Below, one piece after another: positions 1,508 through 7,394 of a stretch of 7,744 bases of DNA (positions are counted from its first letter, which is position 1; the number at the start of each line of letters is the position of its first letter). The DNA is from a virus (lineage: Duplodnaviria; Heunggongvirae; Uroviricota; Caudoviricetes), in the IMG/VR virus record IMGVR_UViG_2660237951_000006; one strand, given 5' to 3'. The translations under genes were made by a program, and so were the position numbers. The notes beneath the pieces are model-generated. The model saw only the letters and a program-made list of their open reading frames with translations, ran no database searches and had not been told where the DNA came from.

Positions 1508-2158
1508 TTAGAAGTTCAGATTTTTCAGTGCATTCAGTGCAGAGCCCACATCCTCAGCGTCGCGCAGGGACAGTGCGCCATAGCCCCCGGCCATGAATGC
1601 TTTGGCCTGGGTACGGGAGAGTCCGACATCACGCAGGACTCTTTCGATTTTTTTCTGTTCGGGGATTTCCCCGCGGGCCAGTGCGTTCTTGACGTCGCTG
1701 ATCCGCGCCTCGTCGTTAGACGGGAACGTCACCAGGCTGACTTCCCAGAGGTCGATTTCTTTCAGCAGAAAGGCTTCTTTGCTCCGGTCGTATTCCCAGT
1801 CTTTCAGGACGTACCCAATAGAAAGGCCGGTTAACGAACCGGCCTTCATGTGTGCATGTGCGCGTTTTGCGAGGGGATCATCATCAATAAGCAACCGTCC
1901 CCTGACGTAAAGCCCGACATCGTCTTCCTTCATTTCGGTGTAAACACCGATGGGTTCATCCATGCGGTGCTGCCAGAGCAGCGCAGGTAACGCTTTTCTG
2001 TCACTCCACGCCCGCAGGGAAGCAGCAAATGCCCCGGACATCACCACATCATCGTGGCTGTCCTTTACACCAAAGACGGAGCCATACCCTTCAAACTCAC
2101 CGGAGTCACTGACAGATTTCAGACTCAGCGGTACATCAAGACGTTGTTTCGTCTGCAT
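1508..2158 (-). CDS. Prohead maturation protease, HK97 gp4 family
   Basis: ORF lies between portal and capsid genes, the canonical position. Start chosen at the internal ATG at 2158 (MQTKQRLDV...), which has an AAGGA Shine-Dalgarno 8 nt upstream. The longest ORF start at 2194 has no Shine-Dalgarno and would overlap the portal gene by 59 nt. Confidence 0.85.
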   Translation of the reverse strand: MQTKQRLDVPLSLKSVSDSGEFEGYGSVFGVKDSHDDVVMSGAFAASLRAWSDRKALPALLWQHRMDEPIGVYTEMKEDDVGLYVRGRLLIDDDPLAKRAHAHMKAGSLTGLSIGYVLKDWEYDRSKEAFLLKEIDLWEVSLVTFPSNDEARISDVKNALARGEIPEQKKIERVLRDVGLSRTQAKAFMAGGYGALSLRDAEDVGSALNALKNLNF

Positions 2159-3377
2159 TGGCGTTATCCTTCTGCTTACCGGCTTTACTGCCATCGGAGG
2201 GTTTCGTGGTCATGTTCATCGGTGTGAGATAGACATCACCACCGGGACGCGGATTCATATCTTCCAGGTCGCGGCAGTCATTGGGAGAGTAAATTCCCCA
2301 GTTAATCCCGGTGGCGTAGGCTTCAAAACGGGACTTCATATCCCCGCGCAGTAACGCCCCGGCGTTAAATTTGGCGTAATAAACGCCCTGCTTACTTTTT
2401 CGTACCAGTCCGGTGTTGATCCGCTGTTCGATGCGGGTCAGATACGGCACCAGTGAATAGTTGATAAATCCCAGCCCCAGCTCTTCGATATTGTTGAAGG
2501 TGGCGCGATCGGTGTTCTGCACCATGTGCAACGGCACCCGGAACAGACGACAGATTTCTTCAAGCTGAAACTTGCGGGTTTCCAGGAACTGGCTGTCCTC
2601 GGCGTTCAGCGCCATCGACTTCCAGTCCAGCCCCATCTCAAGGATCATCGGGCGGTGAGCATTGCCAAGCCCGGTGTGACGCTCCTCAAAATCTTTCTTC
2701 AGGCGCTCATAAGCCTGATCTGACAGCGTCTGCTCTGTACGCAACACACCCGACGTCACCGCGCCATTGCTGAACAGTCTGGCCCCGTGCTCTTCGGTCG
2801 CAGCTGCCAGCGATATTGCCTCGCGGGCATAGGCGATGGGATTCAGCCCCACCAGTCCGTCCAGCGTCAGCGTGCGCACATGCCAGATATCCTCCTGGCT
2901 CAGTACATCCGTGGAGCCATCCGGGAATGTGACCTGATAGATCGGCTCCCAGCTACTGTTAAGCTTCGGTACCACACAGCCGGGATCGACGGGCAGCAGT
3001 TCAGCCACTTCGCCAAATGCTTTCACTTTGTAGGCGTAAAAGTTTCCCCGCAGGCACAGACAGGTGACCACCAGCTCCCAGAACTCCTGCGGCGTCATAT
3101 AGCCATTGGGATGCGTGGAGATCAGTTTATGCAGACGTTCGCCGGTGGCTCTCTGCTTCAGGCTGCCGTTCAGGTGATACAGATTGCAGGGCAACATCCC
3201 GACCGACTCTGCCAGCACTCTGACGCAGGAAAAAACCGCCGTCAGTCGCATGGCCCGCTGACTGCTGATCTGCTTTCCGGTATAGGTGTCGTAGGACAAC
3301 CCGATGGCATCCGCCAGCTCTGCTGGCGTGGTCACCGGTGCGTCACTTTTTCGTTGAAATAATCCCGAAAAGAACAC
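2136..3377 (-). CDS. Portal protein, HK97 family
   Basis: 413-aa ORF directly downstream of the terminase large subunit. GTG start at 3377 is preceded by a strong GGAGG 6 nt upstream. The start overlaps the stop of the upstream mini-ORF (TAGTG). Confidence 0.9.
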   Translation of the reverse strand: MFFSGLFQRKSDAPVTTPAELADAIGLSYDTYTGKQISSQRAMRLTAVFSCVRVLAESVGMLPCNLYHLNGSLKQRATGERLHKLISTHPNGYMTPQEFWELVVTCLCLRGNFYAYKVKAFGEVAELLPVDPGCVVPKLNSSWEPIYQVTFPDGSTDVLSQEDIWHVRTLTLDGLVGLNPIAYAREAISLAAATEEHGARLFSNGAVTSGVLRTEQTLSDQAYERLKKDFEERHTGLGNAHRPMILEMGLDWKSMALNAEDSQFLETRKFQLEEICRLFRVPLHMVQNTDRATFNNIEELGLGFINYSLVPYLTRIEQRINTGLVRKSKQGVYYAKFNAGALLRGDMKSRFEAYATGINWGIYSPNDCRDLEDMNPRPGGDVYLTPMNMTTKPSDGSKAGKQKDNANADETTS

Positions 3378-3559
3378 TATTTACCTCCACCAACAGACAG
3401 CTGTGTACGGTCGAGATATCGCGCTACCAGCCACGACCAGAACAGGCACAACGCCCCGGCAACAACAAACCCCGCCGGGGGATAAATCAGCCAGGCACCA
3501 TACGCCAGCAAAAGCGCCCCCAGCACGCCCACCAGAGGCGCGAGAATCAGCATGATCAT
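3377..3559 (-). CDS. Small hydrophobic protein (60 aa) with two predicted transmembrane helices, inserted between terminase large subunit and portal
   Basis: ATG at 3559 with a GAGGT Shine-Dalgarno 5 nt upstream that overlaps the terminase stop. Its TAG stop overlaps the portal GTG start. Sequence [49 protein letters not shown] gives two hydrophobic segments separated by a PP turn, then a short polar tail. Confidence 0.55.
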
Positions 3560-3570
3560 AATTACCTCAG

Positions 3571-5304
3571 TTAAAGCGAGCGGATCCCATAGGACTCAAT
3601 GTGGTCAGACAGCGTGTCTTCTTTCTCGTACAGCATGGCTCTGCCAACCGCCATAATCAGCGCAACTGCACCGTCAATTTTGTTTTCCGCCTGCTCTTTG
3701 ACGGGTTTCACCACATCATCGTTACCCGGAATGGTTTTGCCGACCACATTGCCGATACACCAGGTCATGATGGGATTGCCATCATGATGAAAGCGCCCCG
3801 ATTCAATTGCCGCTTCCAGCTCTTTCATCGGGTCGGACATGTTGGTGTAGTTCTGAATGATAGTGACGGGATTCAGGTCTTCATCAGCAAGGTCATGTGA
3901 CAACCCGGTCGCCCCGAAGGGGTCGATGGGTGACTCACTGACCGGGCTGATTTTGTTCGCCGCTTTGGCCTCCTCGAGGATGTAGCGATAATCCACCTCC
4001 GCACCATCGGTAACGGTCAGAACGCCCATTTCCACCCATTTCTGAAAGCGTTCGGCTGTCCGGCGATCTTCATTTTTCTCGACGCTGTACACCGTGTCAT
4101 ACGGTACCCAGAAGCGCGGAGCCACACTGTAGTAATGCGTTTTACCGTCAATCTCGCGGGTATAAAGTCGCGCCATGCTGTTCATATCCAGCTTACGCGC
4201 CAGGTCAAAGGCCAGAATGCACGGTTGCCCCTCGAACTGCTCAAGGGTCAGTGATTTATCCTCGCAGCTCTGCCAGCTCACCAGGTTGAAATACGCCGAA
4301 CGCGCCGACACCCAGATATTGAGGTGTTTTGTTTTAAAGACGTTTGCCAGACGGGCGTTATTTTTCGCACGCTGCTGCTGACTTAACAAAAATTCGCGAT
4401 AAACCGACACGCCAATATTCGGGTTAGCTTTTTCCAGCACCTGCGGGTCGGTCCAGTCATCACCTTCATCAACGGTATAGATGATCCCGAACAGTTCATC
4501 GTTGGGCACCGAGCCGTTGAGCATCTCGATGACTTCCCGCCGCTTGTCGTAGCACGGCCCCTCAATGTTGTACCCGGCAGTAGTAATGGCCCACATCAGT
4601 GGCTGACGTCGCGCCCCCATCCCGGTAAGCATCGTGGTGTAAAGCGCATCGGTGGCGTGCTCGTGATATTCATCCACCACCGCACAGTGGGGTGATGAAC
4701 CATCACCGGGGTTACCGATCAGCGGTTCAAACCGCGCGCCATCCTCCGGACGATTCATGTTTGAGGCGTTAACCTCAATCCCGAACGCTTCCGTCAGCAT
4801 GGGTGTGCGTTTACACATCAGTCGCGCCGGGCGAAAGACTTCCCACGCCTGTTTCTCTGTCGTGGCACCGGAATACACTTCCGCGCCAAACTCGTTATCA
4901 CAGGCAAAACAATACAGGGCAACACCGGCAGAGATTGCCGATTTGCCGTTCTTACGGGGGATTTCGGTATACACCTCCCGGAAGCGGCGCAGCCGGGACC
5001 CTTTATTGACCCAGCCAAACGCACAGCAGACCACAAATAGCTGCCACGGCTCCAGCGTGATGGGCATCCTCTTGAATGCCCACTCACCCTTGGTGTGCGG
5101 CAACAGCTGAATAAATTTGGCGGCCCGTTCAGCCAGGTCCTTGTCGAAGCGGTAACGAAACGACTTACTTTTTTCCGCCATCAGGTCATCAAGATGGCGC
5201 TGGCAGGCCTGAATCACAAACTGGCAGGCCACAATCTTTCCGCGCACAACATCACGGGCATACTGATTGGCAGCATTTACGTTGGGGTAAGATTTCCGGC
5301 TCAT
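3571..5304 (-). CDS. Terminase large subunit (ATPase/nuclease)
   Basis: 577-aa ORF. Walker A-like GKS motif ([11 protein letters not shown]) and Walker B-like VVDEYHE in the N-terminal half. The ATG start overlaps the small-subunit stop (ATGA) at 5301-5304. Confidence 0.92.
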
Positions 5305-5795
5305 GACTCGATGATTTTCAGAAACGGGTTAGTGGCTTTCTTCTGCCCCGCCAGGCCAATCAGACGCTGGCGGCTGCTGGGGTCGAGTCCGAGCATTGCC
5401 CCCGTGCTGCTCATCTCGGACTCCTGTTCTTTTTTGGCGGTCAGCTCCGGATTTTTGACCCTGCCGCCCATTGCACCGGTGATGGTGTTGCCCTGTATGG
5501 CAATATTTTTCACGGCACGTCGCCAGAACTCATAGGCCACGCACCACCGCTCAAGCACCGCGAGGTCAGTCACGCACAACAGGCCATGACCGCAGAGTTC
5601 TTTGGTTGTCAGTTGCCACATGATCGTGGCGAGAGGGAGATCTTCTTCAGCGAACCACTCTGGTGGCTCAACACCTTTGATGGGCGTAAAAACAGGTTCA
5701 TCTTTGTTCAGGGCTCGCTTGCCGGGGTTTCCGGCCAGCGCCTTGCGCGCCGTTGGCTTGGGGCGACGCCCGGAACGCCCCGCCGTTCCAGCCAT
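5301..5795 (-). CDS. Terminase small subunit (P27 / HK97 gp1-like)
   Basis: About 164 aa, basic N-terminus, immediately upstream of and overlapping the large subunit. Start placed at ATG 5795, which has AGGAG 8 nt upstream. The track's GTG at 5804 has no properly spaced Shine-Dalgarno. Confidence 0.8.
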
Positions 5796-5845
5796 ATGCG
5801 GCACTCCTGGTTAAATTTCATTTTTCGCGGGTATAAAAAAACGAT

Positions 5846-5920: not shown

Positions 5921-6271
5921 TCACTTTAGCCGTTCACGGGCCGTCTTCGCCTTATGGCACGGCCAGCACAGGCTCTGCAGATTGCTGTCGGCATCTGTGC
6001 CGCCATGCGCTTTAGGAATGATGTGGTCAACGGTTTTCGCCTCACGTACCACACCACCACGCAGACATAACTGACACAGTCCTTTGTCACGCTTGAGCAC
6101 ACGTTCACGGATAACATCCCATTTCGAACCATAACCGCGCTGGTGTCTGGACTGGCCCGGCTTGTATTGCTTCCAGCCTTCACTTTTGTGGCTTTCGCAA
6201 TAGCCTGACGGGTCAGTTGTGGTATGGCGGCAGCCGCGAACACTGCAGGCTTTTGGGGTTCGTGGCGGCAT
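5921..6271 (-). CDS. HNH endonuclease (packaging-associated, HK97 gp74-like)
   Basis: 116-aa ORF with a zinc-binding Cys cluster (CSVRGC...C) and HNH core DHIIPKAHGGTDADSNLQSLCWPCHKAKT. It sits directly upstream of the terminase small subunit, as in HK97-like phages. Confidence 0.88.
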   Translation of the reverse strand: MPPRTPKACSVRGCRHTTTDPSGYCESHKSEGWKQYKPGQSRHQRGYGSKWDVIRERVLKRDKGLCQLCLRGGVVREAKTVDHIIPKAHGGTDADSNLQSLCWPCHKAKTARERLK

Positions 6272-6681: not shown

Positions 6682-6882
6682 CTACTGGCGGTCATTATGC
6701 TCGTAACGAGATACCGTCTTCCCGTTCTGGTTCATCACGTAGGCGACCTCGCCAGGTTTCAGGAATACATTTTTGTCCATTCCCGATACCGCGATGCTCT
6801 GCTGCCCCGGATTGAACCCTACACTCAACCCGCAATGAATCTCTTCACCGCCACCTGGCGACATTACTTTTACTGTTAACAT
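6682..6882 (-). CDS. Hypothetical small protein (66 aa) between the lysis cassette and the HNH gene; possible moron
   Basis: ATG at 6882 with GGAG 7 nt upstream and a TAG stop at 6682-6684. Same strand as the surrounding operon. No family recognised. An 85-aa plus-strand ORF overlaps it in antisense and was judged less likely. Confidence 0.45.
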   Translation of the reverse strand: MLTVKVMSPGGGEEIHCGLSVGFNPGQQSIAVSGMDKNVFLKPGEVAYVMNQNGKTVSRYEHNDRQ

Positions 6883-6953: not shown

Positions 6954-7394
6954 TCACTTAAGACACTGCTCTTTGATGTATTCCTGCAAATATCCAACCT
7001 GTTTCGTCACTGTGACGATTCGCTCTCTGAGGGTGAAATAATCCCGTTCAGCGGAGTCAGTAAGTCGGGGGCCGGTAACATCGCCCAGGCCGCCGGTGCT
7101 GGTCGTTCCGTTCGCGGGACAGTTTGCGTTGAGCTGCAGCCGCTTACGGCCAGCAGAAACATCAGCACGGAGACTTTCGATAGTAGCGTTAGCATCAGCA
7201 AGCTCCTTTGTGTATCTGGCGTCGAGTTCTGCTACATCACGTTGACGCTTCTGCATGTCAGCGATTGTGGATGCGGCTTTATCGCGCTGTTCTTTGTAGG
7301 CGATGGCGTTATCACGGTAATGATTAACAGCCCATGACAGGCAGACGATGATGCAGATAACCAGAGCGGAGATAATCGCGGTTACTCTGCTCAT
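6954..7394 (-). CDS. Rz: Rz inner-membrane spanin (i-spanin), lambda Rz-like
   Basis: 146-aa ORF with an N-terminal transmembrane segment ([23 protein letters not shown]) and a coiled-coil periplasmic domain. The N-terminus and the [10 protein letters not shown] motif match my recollection of lambda Rz. The ATG overlaps the endolysin stop (ATGA). Confidence 0.9.
7007..7201 (-). CDS. Rz1: Rz1 outer-membrane lipoprotein spanin (o-spanin), embedded in the +1 frame of Rz
   Basis: ORF lies entirely inside Rz in another frame. Signal peptide with lipobox LAVSGC, a proline-rich mature part, and the C-terminal motif [11 protein letters not shown] shared with lambda Rz1. The true start may be a downstream Met. 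Confidence 0.85.

Follow-up and report, generated by a model that had tools for sequence, protein, structure and literature searches.

In phage lambda a small gene, W, lies between the gene of the large terminase subunit (TerL; gene A) and that of the portal (B), and encodes a soluble head-completion protein. In T4 the portal initiator is an inner-membrane-bound complex that requires gp40, a phage-encoded, membrane-associated, non-structural helper proposed to act with the portal at the start of the prohead (PMC9958956). In HK97, gp15 is a small predicted inner-membrane protein encoded in the late structural operon. It mediates moron-encoded superinfection exclusion: the gene resides in the tail operon, has its own promoter and terminator and a deviant GC content, and the product acts through the tape-measure protein (PMC3594210). 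The element studied here, ymfR, shares its position with W, and the small size, the predicted membrane location and the late structural setting of its product with gp15. It is a 60-aa open reading frame (ORF) located between TerL and the portal in a 7,744-nt stretch of Caudoviricetes DNA (IMG/VR record IMGVR_UViG_2660237951_000006; the whole stretch is called the window below). Comparative analysis depicts ymfR not as a sporadic moron, but as an ancient gene locked to the portal, distributed from prophages of enterobacteria to phages of Clostridia, which travels with the head-assembly block when terminase and tail modules are swapped, and has been repeatedly lost.

As an annotated gene family ymfR is already known, and its function is undescribed. 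The protein encoded in the window matches phrog_502, 'membrane protein' (E = 1.5e-27, residues 1-55 of 60), the only PHROG returned, which is filed in the category 'moron, auxiliary metabolic gene and host takeover'. At the DNA level the ORF is 97-100% identical to RefSeq loci denoted 'ymfR: protein YmfR', including that of K-12 MG1655 (e14 cryptic prophage, b1150), 95-97% identical to ORFs of SfI, SfII, SfIV, ST64B (sb3) and 118970_sal3, and 87% identical to L37 of phiP27; the records of these six phages label it as a (putative integral) membrane protein. YmfR of e14, ST64B sb3, phiP27 L37, phiKO2 gp3 and SfII_03 are the same gene, all 60 aa long, 90-100% identical and located in the TerL-portal slot. 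No sequence difference separates the window ORF from these named members of PHROG 502, none of which has an assigned function, and the ORF exhibits all the features of the family: about 60 aa, two hydrophobic helices, a turn of the YPPAG type, and a place between TerL and a PF04860 portal. Among 5426 complete genomes of E. coli, 1373 carry the gene. Searches of Pfam, NCBIfam, PADLOC, Rfam and the Protein Data Bank (PDB), the latter both by sequence and by Foldseek, gave nothing above threshold; the only sub-threshold matches were to generic families with two transmembrane (TM) segments (DUF1206, RseC_MucC, DUF2244, 8xMP).

Mentions of ymfR in the literature are confined to gene lists, deletion lists and its use as an integration site; no functional study of the gene was found, nor did the literature searched yield any description of a small membrane protein encoded at the terminase-portal junction. 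According to PMC9145139, 'deletion ... does not affect the phenotype' of K-12, in which the gene serves as a neutral integration site. Under SOS-inducing treatment e14 genes including ymfR are induced together, with a log2 fold change of 4.5 (PMC10012262). The initial annotation had regarded the ORF as a candidate for an undescribed accessory function. A dispensable gene of undescribed function is indeed what the comparisons outline, but it is no oddity of the window, being annotated elsewhere as ymfR and as PHROG 502. What is undescribed, as far as the searchable literature shows, is its behaviour as a portal-locked, cross-phylum component of the head module.

Identity with gpW was considered and rejected. 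YmfR is a hydrophobic TM hairpin, gives no gpW match in Pfam, and accompanies PF04860 rather than lambda-type portals. In the records ON470603, ON470584, ON470580 and PQ793804 (hits H1, H4, H19 and H12, respectively) the label 'head-tail joining protein W' is attached to the homologue of YmfR, which looks like a positional mis-annotation derived from the lambda A-W-B order. In the Yersinia telomere phage PY54 (NC_005069) a family member at 2382-2486 (hits H44/H45 and H78/H79) lies under no annotated feature; its counterpart in phiKO2 is annotated, as gp3, 'membrane protein'.

The position of family members was assessed by two locus scans, in which loci were selected by a small-ORF motif only, blind to position. 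The motif biases which members are sampled, not where they sit. For viral loci it was derived from a 15-sequence subset, as the 66-sequence alignment has no stretch conserved enough for a locus search. In genome contigs the portal, or a remnant of it, is found directly downstream in 36 of 38 loci, the exceptions being L035 (portal lost, S78 protease kept) and L039 (remnant). Among viral loci with enough downstream DNA, a PF04860-type portal starts at the stop codon of the small ORF in 75 of 76; in the other one (L240) a 266-aa ORF is inserted ahead of a bona fide portal. Taken together, the scans place the portal immediately downstream in 111 of 114 loci, in phages of hosts ranging from Proteobacteria to Clostridia. 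A one-base overlap (TGATG, TAATG or TAGTG) joins the two genes in about 39 of 46 distinct lineages. In 12 loci extra genes, spanning 0.4-2 kb, separate the small ORF from TerL, and a single locus has an insertion toward the portal. That the portal is the neighbour in phages of different phyla points toward the head module. Reyranella-like loci (L205-L229, L231) show the same asymmetry: the junction of TerL and the small ORF holds extra genes, and that of the small ORF and the portal never does. The insertion in L231 (1632-2213) is a DNA methyltransferase-like ORF with a DPPY motif.

Terminase and portal have different histories with respect to the small ORF. In phi467 and three Serratia prophages TerL is 36-37% identical to that of the window, portal 73-96% and the small ORF 52-90%. 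Conversely, SfV has a TerL 98% identical to that of the window and an unrelated portal (28%). Its genome (L002, NC_003444) contains an unannotated 53-aa ORF with two TM segments (locus 2762-2923, minus strand), with an ATGA junction to TerL and a TGATG junction to the portal. The annotated start of the SfV portal (locus 2820) is probably about 56 nt too far upstream, because of the TGATG overlap with this ORF. SfV had been taken as a natural gene-less control, with a gap of 99 bp; this was rejected, since hidden Markov model and sequence comparisons reveal the hairpin ORF, and the case supports linkage to the portal. A near-identical TerL next to a different portal and small ORF places the recombination joint between TerL and the small ORF. 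Independence from the tail is seen in phages encoding the identical protein (P0042) and the same portal-protease-capsid genes, some of which have contractile tails (L289-293), and others siphovirus tails of the lambda/HK97 type (L294-296). By these comparisons, the YmfR family is part of the portal-protease-capsid recombination unit, whatever the TerL or the tail type.

Whether an ORF is kept at the TerL-portal junction of related prophages, a check put forward in the initial annotation, was assessed in loci sampled by portal. The gene is present in all 54 loci having a portal at least 71% identical and upstream DNA available. Among portals 41-65% identical it is found in 7 of 22 only; in the remaining 15 the TerL stop is 0-70 nt from the portal start, which leaves no room for it. 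The portal tree distributes the gene-less loci over 6-7 clades or more, all of which have gene-bearing sisters, and the gene appears therefore to be ancestral and repeatedly lost. Because of its repeated loss, ymfR is to be considered, on phylogenetic grounds, dispensable. The N-terminus of the portal was examined as a correlate of the gene, and does not discriminate, the same hydrophobic/basic start occurring with and without it.

Loss of this kind suits also a late-expressed membrane effector unrelated to assembly, hitch-hiking in the head module, and this is the main alternative, tentative and about as probable as the role favoured below. YmfR could, for instance, act as a general barrier to secondary DNA entry in the lytic cycle, tune the membrane potential or the moment of lysis, or inhibit a universally conserved membrane enzyme, roles that even jointly are no better than possible. 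Effectors of such kind, HK97 gp15 being one (PMC3594210), make up the majority of the small TM proteins of phages with an established function, PHROG 502 is filed with morons and host takeover genes, and the conserved residues of YmfR, being intramembrane or periplasmic, would fit a membrane partner or an oligomeric pore. A free-standing effector is nonetheless expected to move, and this gene stays directly before the portal in nearly all the loci scanned. PADLOC returned 0 families at E <= 1, and no holin or exclusion family was matched; the same protein is found with different tails and different endolysins; a host-specific target is made less likely by the occurrence in diderm as well as monoderm hosts.

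The coding nature of the ORF was evaluated in 80 IMG/VR loci, which were picked by portal identity and represent a sample of close relatives. No locus lacked the ORF or had its frame disrupted: it is intact in 80/80, in 35 nucleotide alleles. The ratio of nonsynonymous to synonymous polymorphism (pN/pS) is 0.22, and ranges from 0.4 to 1.8 in the other five frames, evidence that the ORF is more than chance. Variable sites number 11, 4 and 16 at the three codon positions. Within the ORF, pN/pS is 0.125 for residues 1-47, corresponding to the TM core, and 0.44 for the tail. By these measures ymfR is a protein-coding gene under purifying selection, and selection falls on the TM core rather than on the 3' end, which bears the ribosome-binding site (RBS) of the portal.

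The only reason to suspect that the ORF is not a gene, and is rather a chance ORF, an antisense shadow or the cover of an RNA element, is a 12-bp GC-rich hairpin followed by TTTTG inside the ORF (3541-3514, minus strand), detected by scanning and corresponding to the 'putative rho-independent terminator' annotated in the SfII record (NC_021857, 2370-2419). A terminator was rejected, as homologues encoding the same peptide fold differently, without a stem plus U-tract; the hairpin seems to be a by-product of GC-rich Gly/Ala/Leu codons. With the frame intact throughout the sample, purifying selection confined to the annotated frame, hundreds of homologues of constant length, and no match in Rfam, the non-coding reading is practically negligible.

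A second reading concedes translation, yet deems the peptide incidental: the ORF would be a translational device, delivering ribosomes to the weak GTG of the portal and setting portal dosage. The Shine-Dalgarno (SD) of the portal does lie within the ORF, the portal does start with GTG, the overlap is conserved, and insertions avoid the small ORF-portal junction. This explanation is improbable. Selection is strongest in the TM core and relaxed at the RBS-bearing end; the turn motif and the glycine positions are conserved across phyla; a spacer ORF needs no membrane hairpin; and where the gene has been lost, the portal couples to TerL directly.

Two hydrophobic helices had been recognized in the initial annotation, and hydropathy and structure prediction agree with them. 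Of all stop-to-stop ORFs that reach 40 aa in the window, 101 in number, YmfR has the highest grand average of hydropathy (1.29). The hydropathy profile outlines two hydrophobic segments, spanning approximately residues 2-25 and 31-47, with YPPAG in between; AlphaFold2 (AF2), run on a 17-sequence alignment, predicts helices at residues 2-25 and 27-57, with a mean predicted local distance difference test score (pLDDT) of 74. Second helices of marginal hydrophobicity are common in helical hairpins. The summed insertion energy of YmfR is favourable for TM1 (about -1.8 kcal/mol) and marginal for TM2 taken alone (+1.9), on the scale of Hessa et al. 2005. Charges are confined to the C-tail (3 K/R, 1 D), and distant relatives, such as the alphaproteobacterial forms, feature a basic N-terminal extension instead. 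According to the positive-inside rule, both features predict an N-in/C-in topology, with the very short YPPAG turn outside. YmfR is thus supported as a two-helix hairpin of the inner membrane, its membrane association being predicted. The terminal GG[EKD] is kept across relatives, and is constrained because the RBS of the portal is embedded there. Residue 54 of the tail (codon 3398-3400) is hypervariable (S, P, M, L, T or Q) among alleles otherwise near-identical, in which the rest is almost fixed.

Small size, two TM helices, N-in/C-in topology and abundance of glycines recall class II holins, and a holin/antiholin-like activity had been proposed initially. YmfR is very unlikely to be a holin, pinholin or antiholin. 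In all the contexts examined a lysis cassette made by PF16931 and PF05449 holins, endolysin and Rz/Rz1 is found upstream of HNH-TerS, several kb off. No holin family of Pfam was matched at E <= 10 by any of 17 members, and the C-tail is short and weakly charged, measuring 3-6 residues in many relatives. Holins are typically far less conserved in sequence than YmfR.

Exclusion or injection blocking, also suggested in the initial annotation, fits the data poorly. A moron in the classical sense (Hendrix/Cumby definition, PMC3594210), active in the repressed prophage and providing superinfection exclusion to the benefit of the host, as HK97 gp15 does, would account for a predicted inner-membrane protein whose additional gene separates two neighbours that touch each other in related phages (TerL and portal are in direct contact in 15/22 of the more distant portal lineages), and for its intactness in decayed e14 and in the L294/L295 remnants, despite truncated TerL and portal. 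None of the transcription and composition signatures of gp15 is found in ymfR. On the coding strand the preceding 500 nt or so contain nothing resembling a promoter, and no terminator is conserved, the only hairpin lying inside the ORF; GC content is 0.57-0.59 in the ORF and 0.51-0.57 in the flanks, hence not distinct. The position is fixed, with the stop codon overlapping the portal start. An exclusion mediated by the tape-measure protein, as in gp15, is at odds with the association of the identical protein with both myovirus and siphovirus tails, and hence with its independence of tail type. The K-12 deletion has no reported phenotype (PMC9145139), and in e14 the gene is induced along with other prophage genes. 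The classical moron is, on balance, unlikely.

YmfR-like proteins are widespread. A word-indexed search retrieved 166 clusters at 90% identity, almost all 59-61 aa, from across Enterobacterales. When 1.84 billion representatives were searched exhaustively with a profile, 376 clusters (50% identity level) were retrieved at E <= 1e-3, of which 26 at E <= 1e-10. The 376 clusters are nearly all 45-80 aa in length, and share the core [YF]-G-A-W-[LM]-[IV]-Y-x-P-A-G-[FY]-I-V-x-G, with a turn of the form G-x-W-x-I-Y-P-P-A-G-F. Members have been identified in Serratia, Mangrovibacter, Citrobacter, Marinobacter phage AS1, Azospirillum phage Cd and Reyranella, as in Shinella, Rhodoferax, Lysobacterales, Geobacter and metagenome-assembled genomes (MAGs) of Ruminococcaceae. 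The YPPAG-type motif recurs in Alpha-, Beta-, Gamma- and Deltaproteobacteria and in the Clostridia phage Cormatin. In this cultured phage of Flavonifractor the TerL-portal slot is occupied by the gene of a 59-aa 'membrane protein' (…GAGMIYLPAGLITGG…), which matches PHROG 502 with E = 8e-4 and thereby backs membership in Bacillota; a member in a phage of Clostridia implies that the partner of the protein is not an envelope component specific to Gram-negatives. The notion that HK97-type modules have no gene between TerL and portal, on which the initial annotation relied, is thus wrong for a large share of them, the gene being present in hundreds of diverged lineages. Matches of 95-100% identity to this prophage region of E. 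coli/Shigella type in records of unrelated taxa, namely an Edwardsiella hoshinae NBRC 105699 contig (L005), a Bacillota MAG (L007) and the 1764-bp 'Enterococcus phage Efm 3-10' (H18), are probably due to contamination or mis-binning rather than to true host range.

PHROG 7105 is a more diverged sister branch of PHROG 502, likewise without an assigned function. Its members resemble YmfR in being two-TM hairpins of 50-65 aa joined by ATGA and TGATG overlaps to TerL and portal, respectively. They differ in that the YPPAG turn is replaced (by FGMAPA, for example), and are associated with a different portal clade (28% identity). The SfV copy, which BLAST cannot align to YmfR, matches both PHROG 7105 (3e-22) and PHROG 502 (5.7e-6). 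The YmfR family, PHROG 502 with its sister PHROG 7105, is ancient. Some members (P0152, P0163, P0174, P0247) are tandem duplications, 102-122 aa long, with two hairpins per polypeptide, a hint that the functional unit may have more than one hairpin, or self-associate.

From these features a function may tentatively be proposed as the leading hypothesis: YmfR could be a dispensable membrane anchor or helper of the portal at prohead initiation or packaging, similar to T4 gp40 in function. The hairpin would be made together with the portal via translational coupling, would self-associate in the membrane through its helices rich in glycine and small residues, and would give the portal a membrane-anchored site, or chaperone it, when the prohead is initiated or at the vertex of packaging. 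It would be a helper that improves efficiency, analogous to gp40 for the gp20 portal, without being a gp40 homologue. Conservation is concentrated in the periplasmic turn and in glycines and small residues of the two helices, which suggests that the protein acts within the bilayer; the existence of tandem duplicates makes action as an oligomer probable. In the initial annotation a membrane protein was seen as having no obvious role in capsid assembly; this overlooks the inner-membrane portal initiator of T4 and gp40 (PMC9958956). gp40 is larger than YmfR, is not known to be related to it in sequence, and the shared role would be an analogy. Unlike ymfR, the gp40 gene is not known to be adjacent to the portal gene, gene 20. 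It might further be, though this is rather doubtful, that HK97-type phages of many phyla carry a dedicated portal-coupled hairpin (PHROG 502/7105) which anchors or nucleates the portal or the prohead at the membrane.

Several observations weigh against a role as portal helper, the main weakness being that no cytoplasmic surface is conserved and that many lineages do without the gene. No direct evidence of a YmfR-portal contact was obtained. A portal that resides in the cytoplasm would have no conserved cytoplasmic segment to bind, the tail being variable in enteric members and the conserved residues lying in the bilayer or in the periplasmic turn. To our knowledge no report makes a membrane a requirement of assembly in HK97 or lambda, and we know of membrane-initiated head assembly documented essentially only for T4. 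The gene is missing in most of the more distant portal lineages (15/22), and their HK97-type heads assemble without it. Purifying selection on ymfR is weaker than on TerL, protease and capsid (pN/pS about 0.07); the value for portal (0.012) is biased low by the selection of loci on portal identity, and is not a valid comparator. Adjacency to the portal could be the mere result of vertical descent and of the portal RBS embedded in the ORF. Lastly, a satellite-like element in L294 lacks a YmfR-family ORF, a weak argument against an essential role in assembly, because this one element also differs in the order of its genes. This capsid-forming element (1-8742), which resembles capsid-forming phage-inducible chromosomal islands (cf-PICI-like), contains DUF927 primase, a single-stranded DNA-binding protein (SSB) and PerC genes, followed by capsid-protease-portal-HNH-TerS-TerL, and is located directly upstream of a prophage in which TerL is truncated to the C-terminal 247 aa.

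The minus-strand genes of the window make up a late module of the HK97 type (Table 1). A 60-aa ORF was correctly assigned to the junction at 3377-3559, and Pfam confirms both flanking genes; the strand is minus. The SD of ymfR had been described as overlapping the TerL stop. It is present, as GAGG (3568-3565), but comes directly after the stop, with no overlap. The predicted overlap between the ORF stop and the portal start is there, with one base shared in TAGTG. Reading from the sequence, the 3' end of ymfR is GGT-GGA-GGT-AAA-TAG-TG, and the portal starts with GTG. These arrangements support translational coupling of ymfR on both sides, to TerL and to the portal.

Table 1. Features of the window around ymfR, coordinates referring to the whole 7,744-nt stretch
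Feature	Position	Strand	Remarks
Rz with embedded Rz1	6954-7394	minus	
HNH endonuclease	5921-6271	minus	
TerS	5301-5804	minus	
TerL	3571-5304	minus	PF03354 + PF20441; usual but exchangeable upstream neighbour
TerL/ymfR junction		minus	TAA (3573-3571)-C-TGAGG-TAATT-ATG, read from sequence
ymfR Shine-Dalgarno GAGG	3565-3568	minus	5 nt before ATG, 2 nt after TerL stop
ymfR-family ORF, 60 aa	3377-3559	minus	ATG 3559-3557, TAG 3379-3377; PHROG 502 'membrane protein'
TM helix 1, residues 2-25	3485-3556	minus	Predicted; conserved P8, G11, G14, G21, W23; from hydropathy, AF2, invariant columns
YPPAG turn, residues 26-30	3470-3484	minus	Predicted periplasmic; best-conserved motif of the family (alignments)
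TM helix 2, residues 31-47	3419-3469	minus	Predicted; conserved G35, C38, L39, W41, S42
Short basic cytoplasmic tail, residues 48-60	3380-3418	minus	Predicted; variable (pN/pS 0.44) except terminal GG[KED]
Portal Shine-Dalgarno GGAGG	3384-3388	minus	Embedded in ymfR codons 57-58
TAGTG stop/start overlap, ymfR-portal	3375-3379	minus	1 nt shared (G of TAG = G of GTG)
Portal	2136-3377	minus	PF04860, E = 6e-108; invariant downstream partner
Prohead protease	1508-2194	minus	PF04586
Major capsid protein	288-1493	minus	PF05065

Two more ORFs are found on the minus strand in the lysis region and next to it. An Rz1-type o-spanin ORF (7007-7201), with a LAVSGC lipobox and a proline-rich sequence, lies out of frame within the Rz gene, in the classic embedded spanin architecture. 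Another conserved small gene, a 66-aa ORF (6682-6882) located between the lysis genes and HNH, matches PHROG 3909 (E = 8e-37), which has no function assigned.

The annotation of phage genomes may benefit from these data, as the ORF has been missed in SfV and PY54, the SfV portal start is probably misplaced, and several records carry the mislabel 'W'. The pattern described makes a membrane partner of the HK97-type portal testable in tractable systems, such as SfI/SfII of Shigella, ST64B-like prophages of Salmonella, phiKO2 and E. coli prophages, the latter carrying ymfR in about a quarter of sequenced strains. Should the proposed role as portal helper be false, YmfR would represent a new class of late membrane effector embedded in the head module. 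Should it be true, membrane-initiated head assembly would be a widespread, optional feature of the largest capsid lineage, and the textbook view that T4-like heads alone start at the membrane would change.

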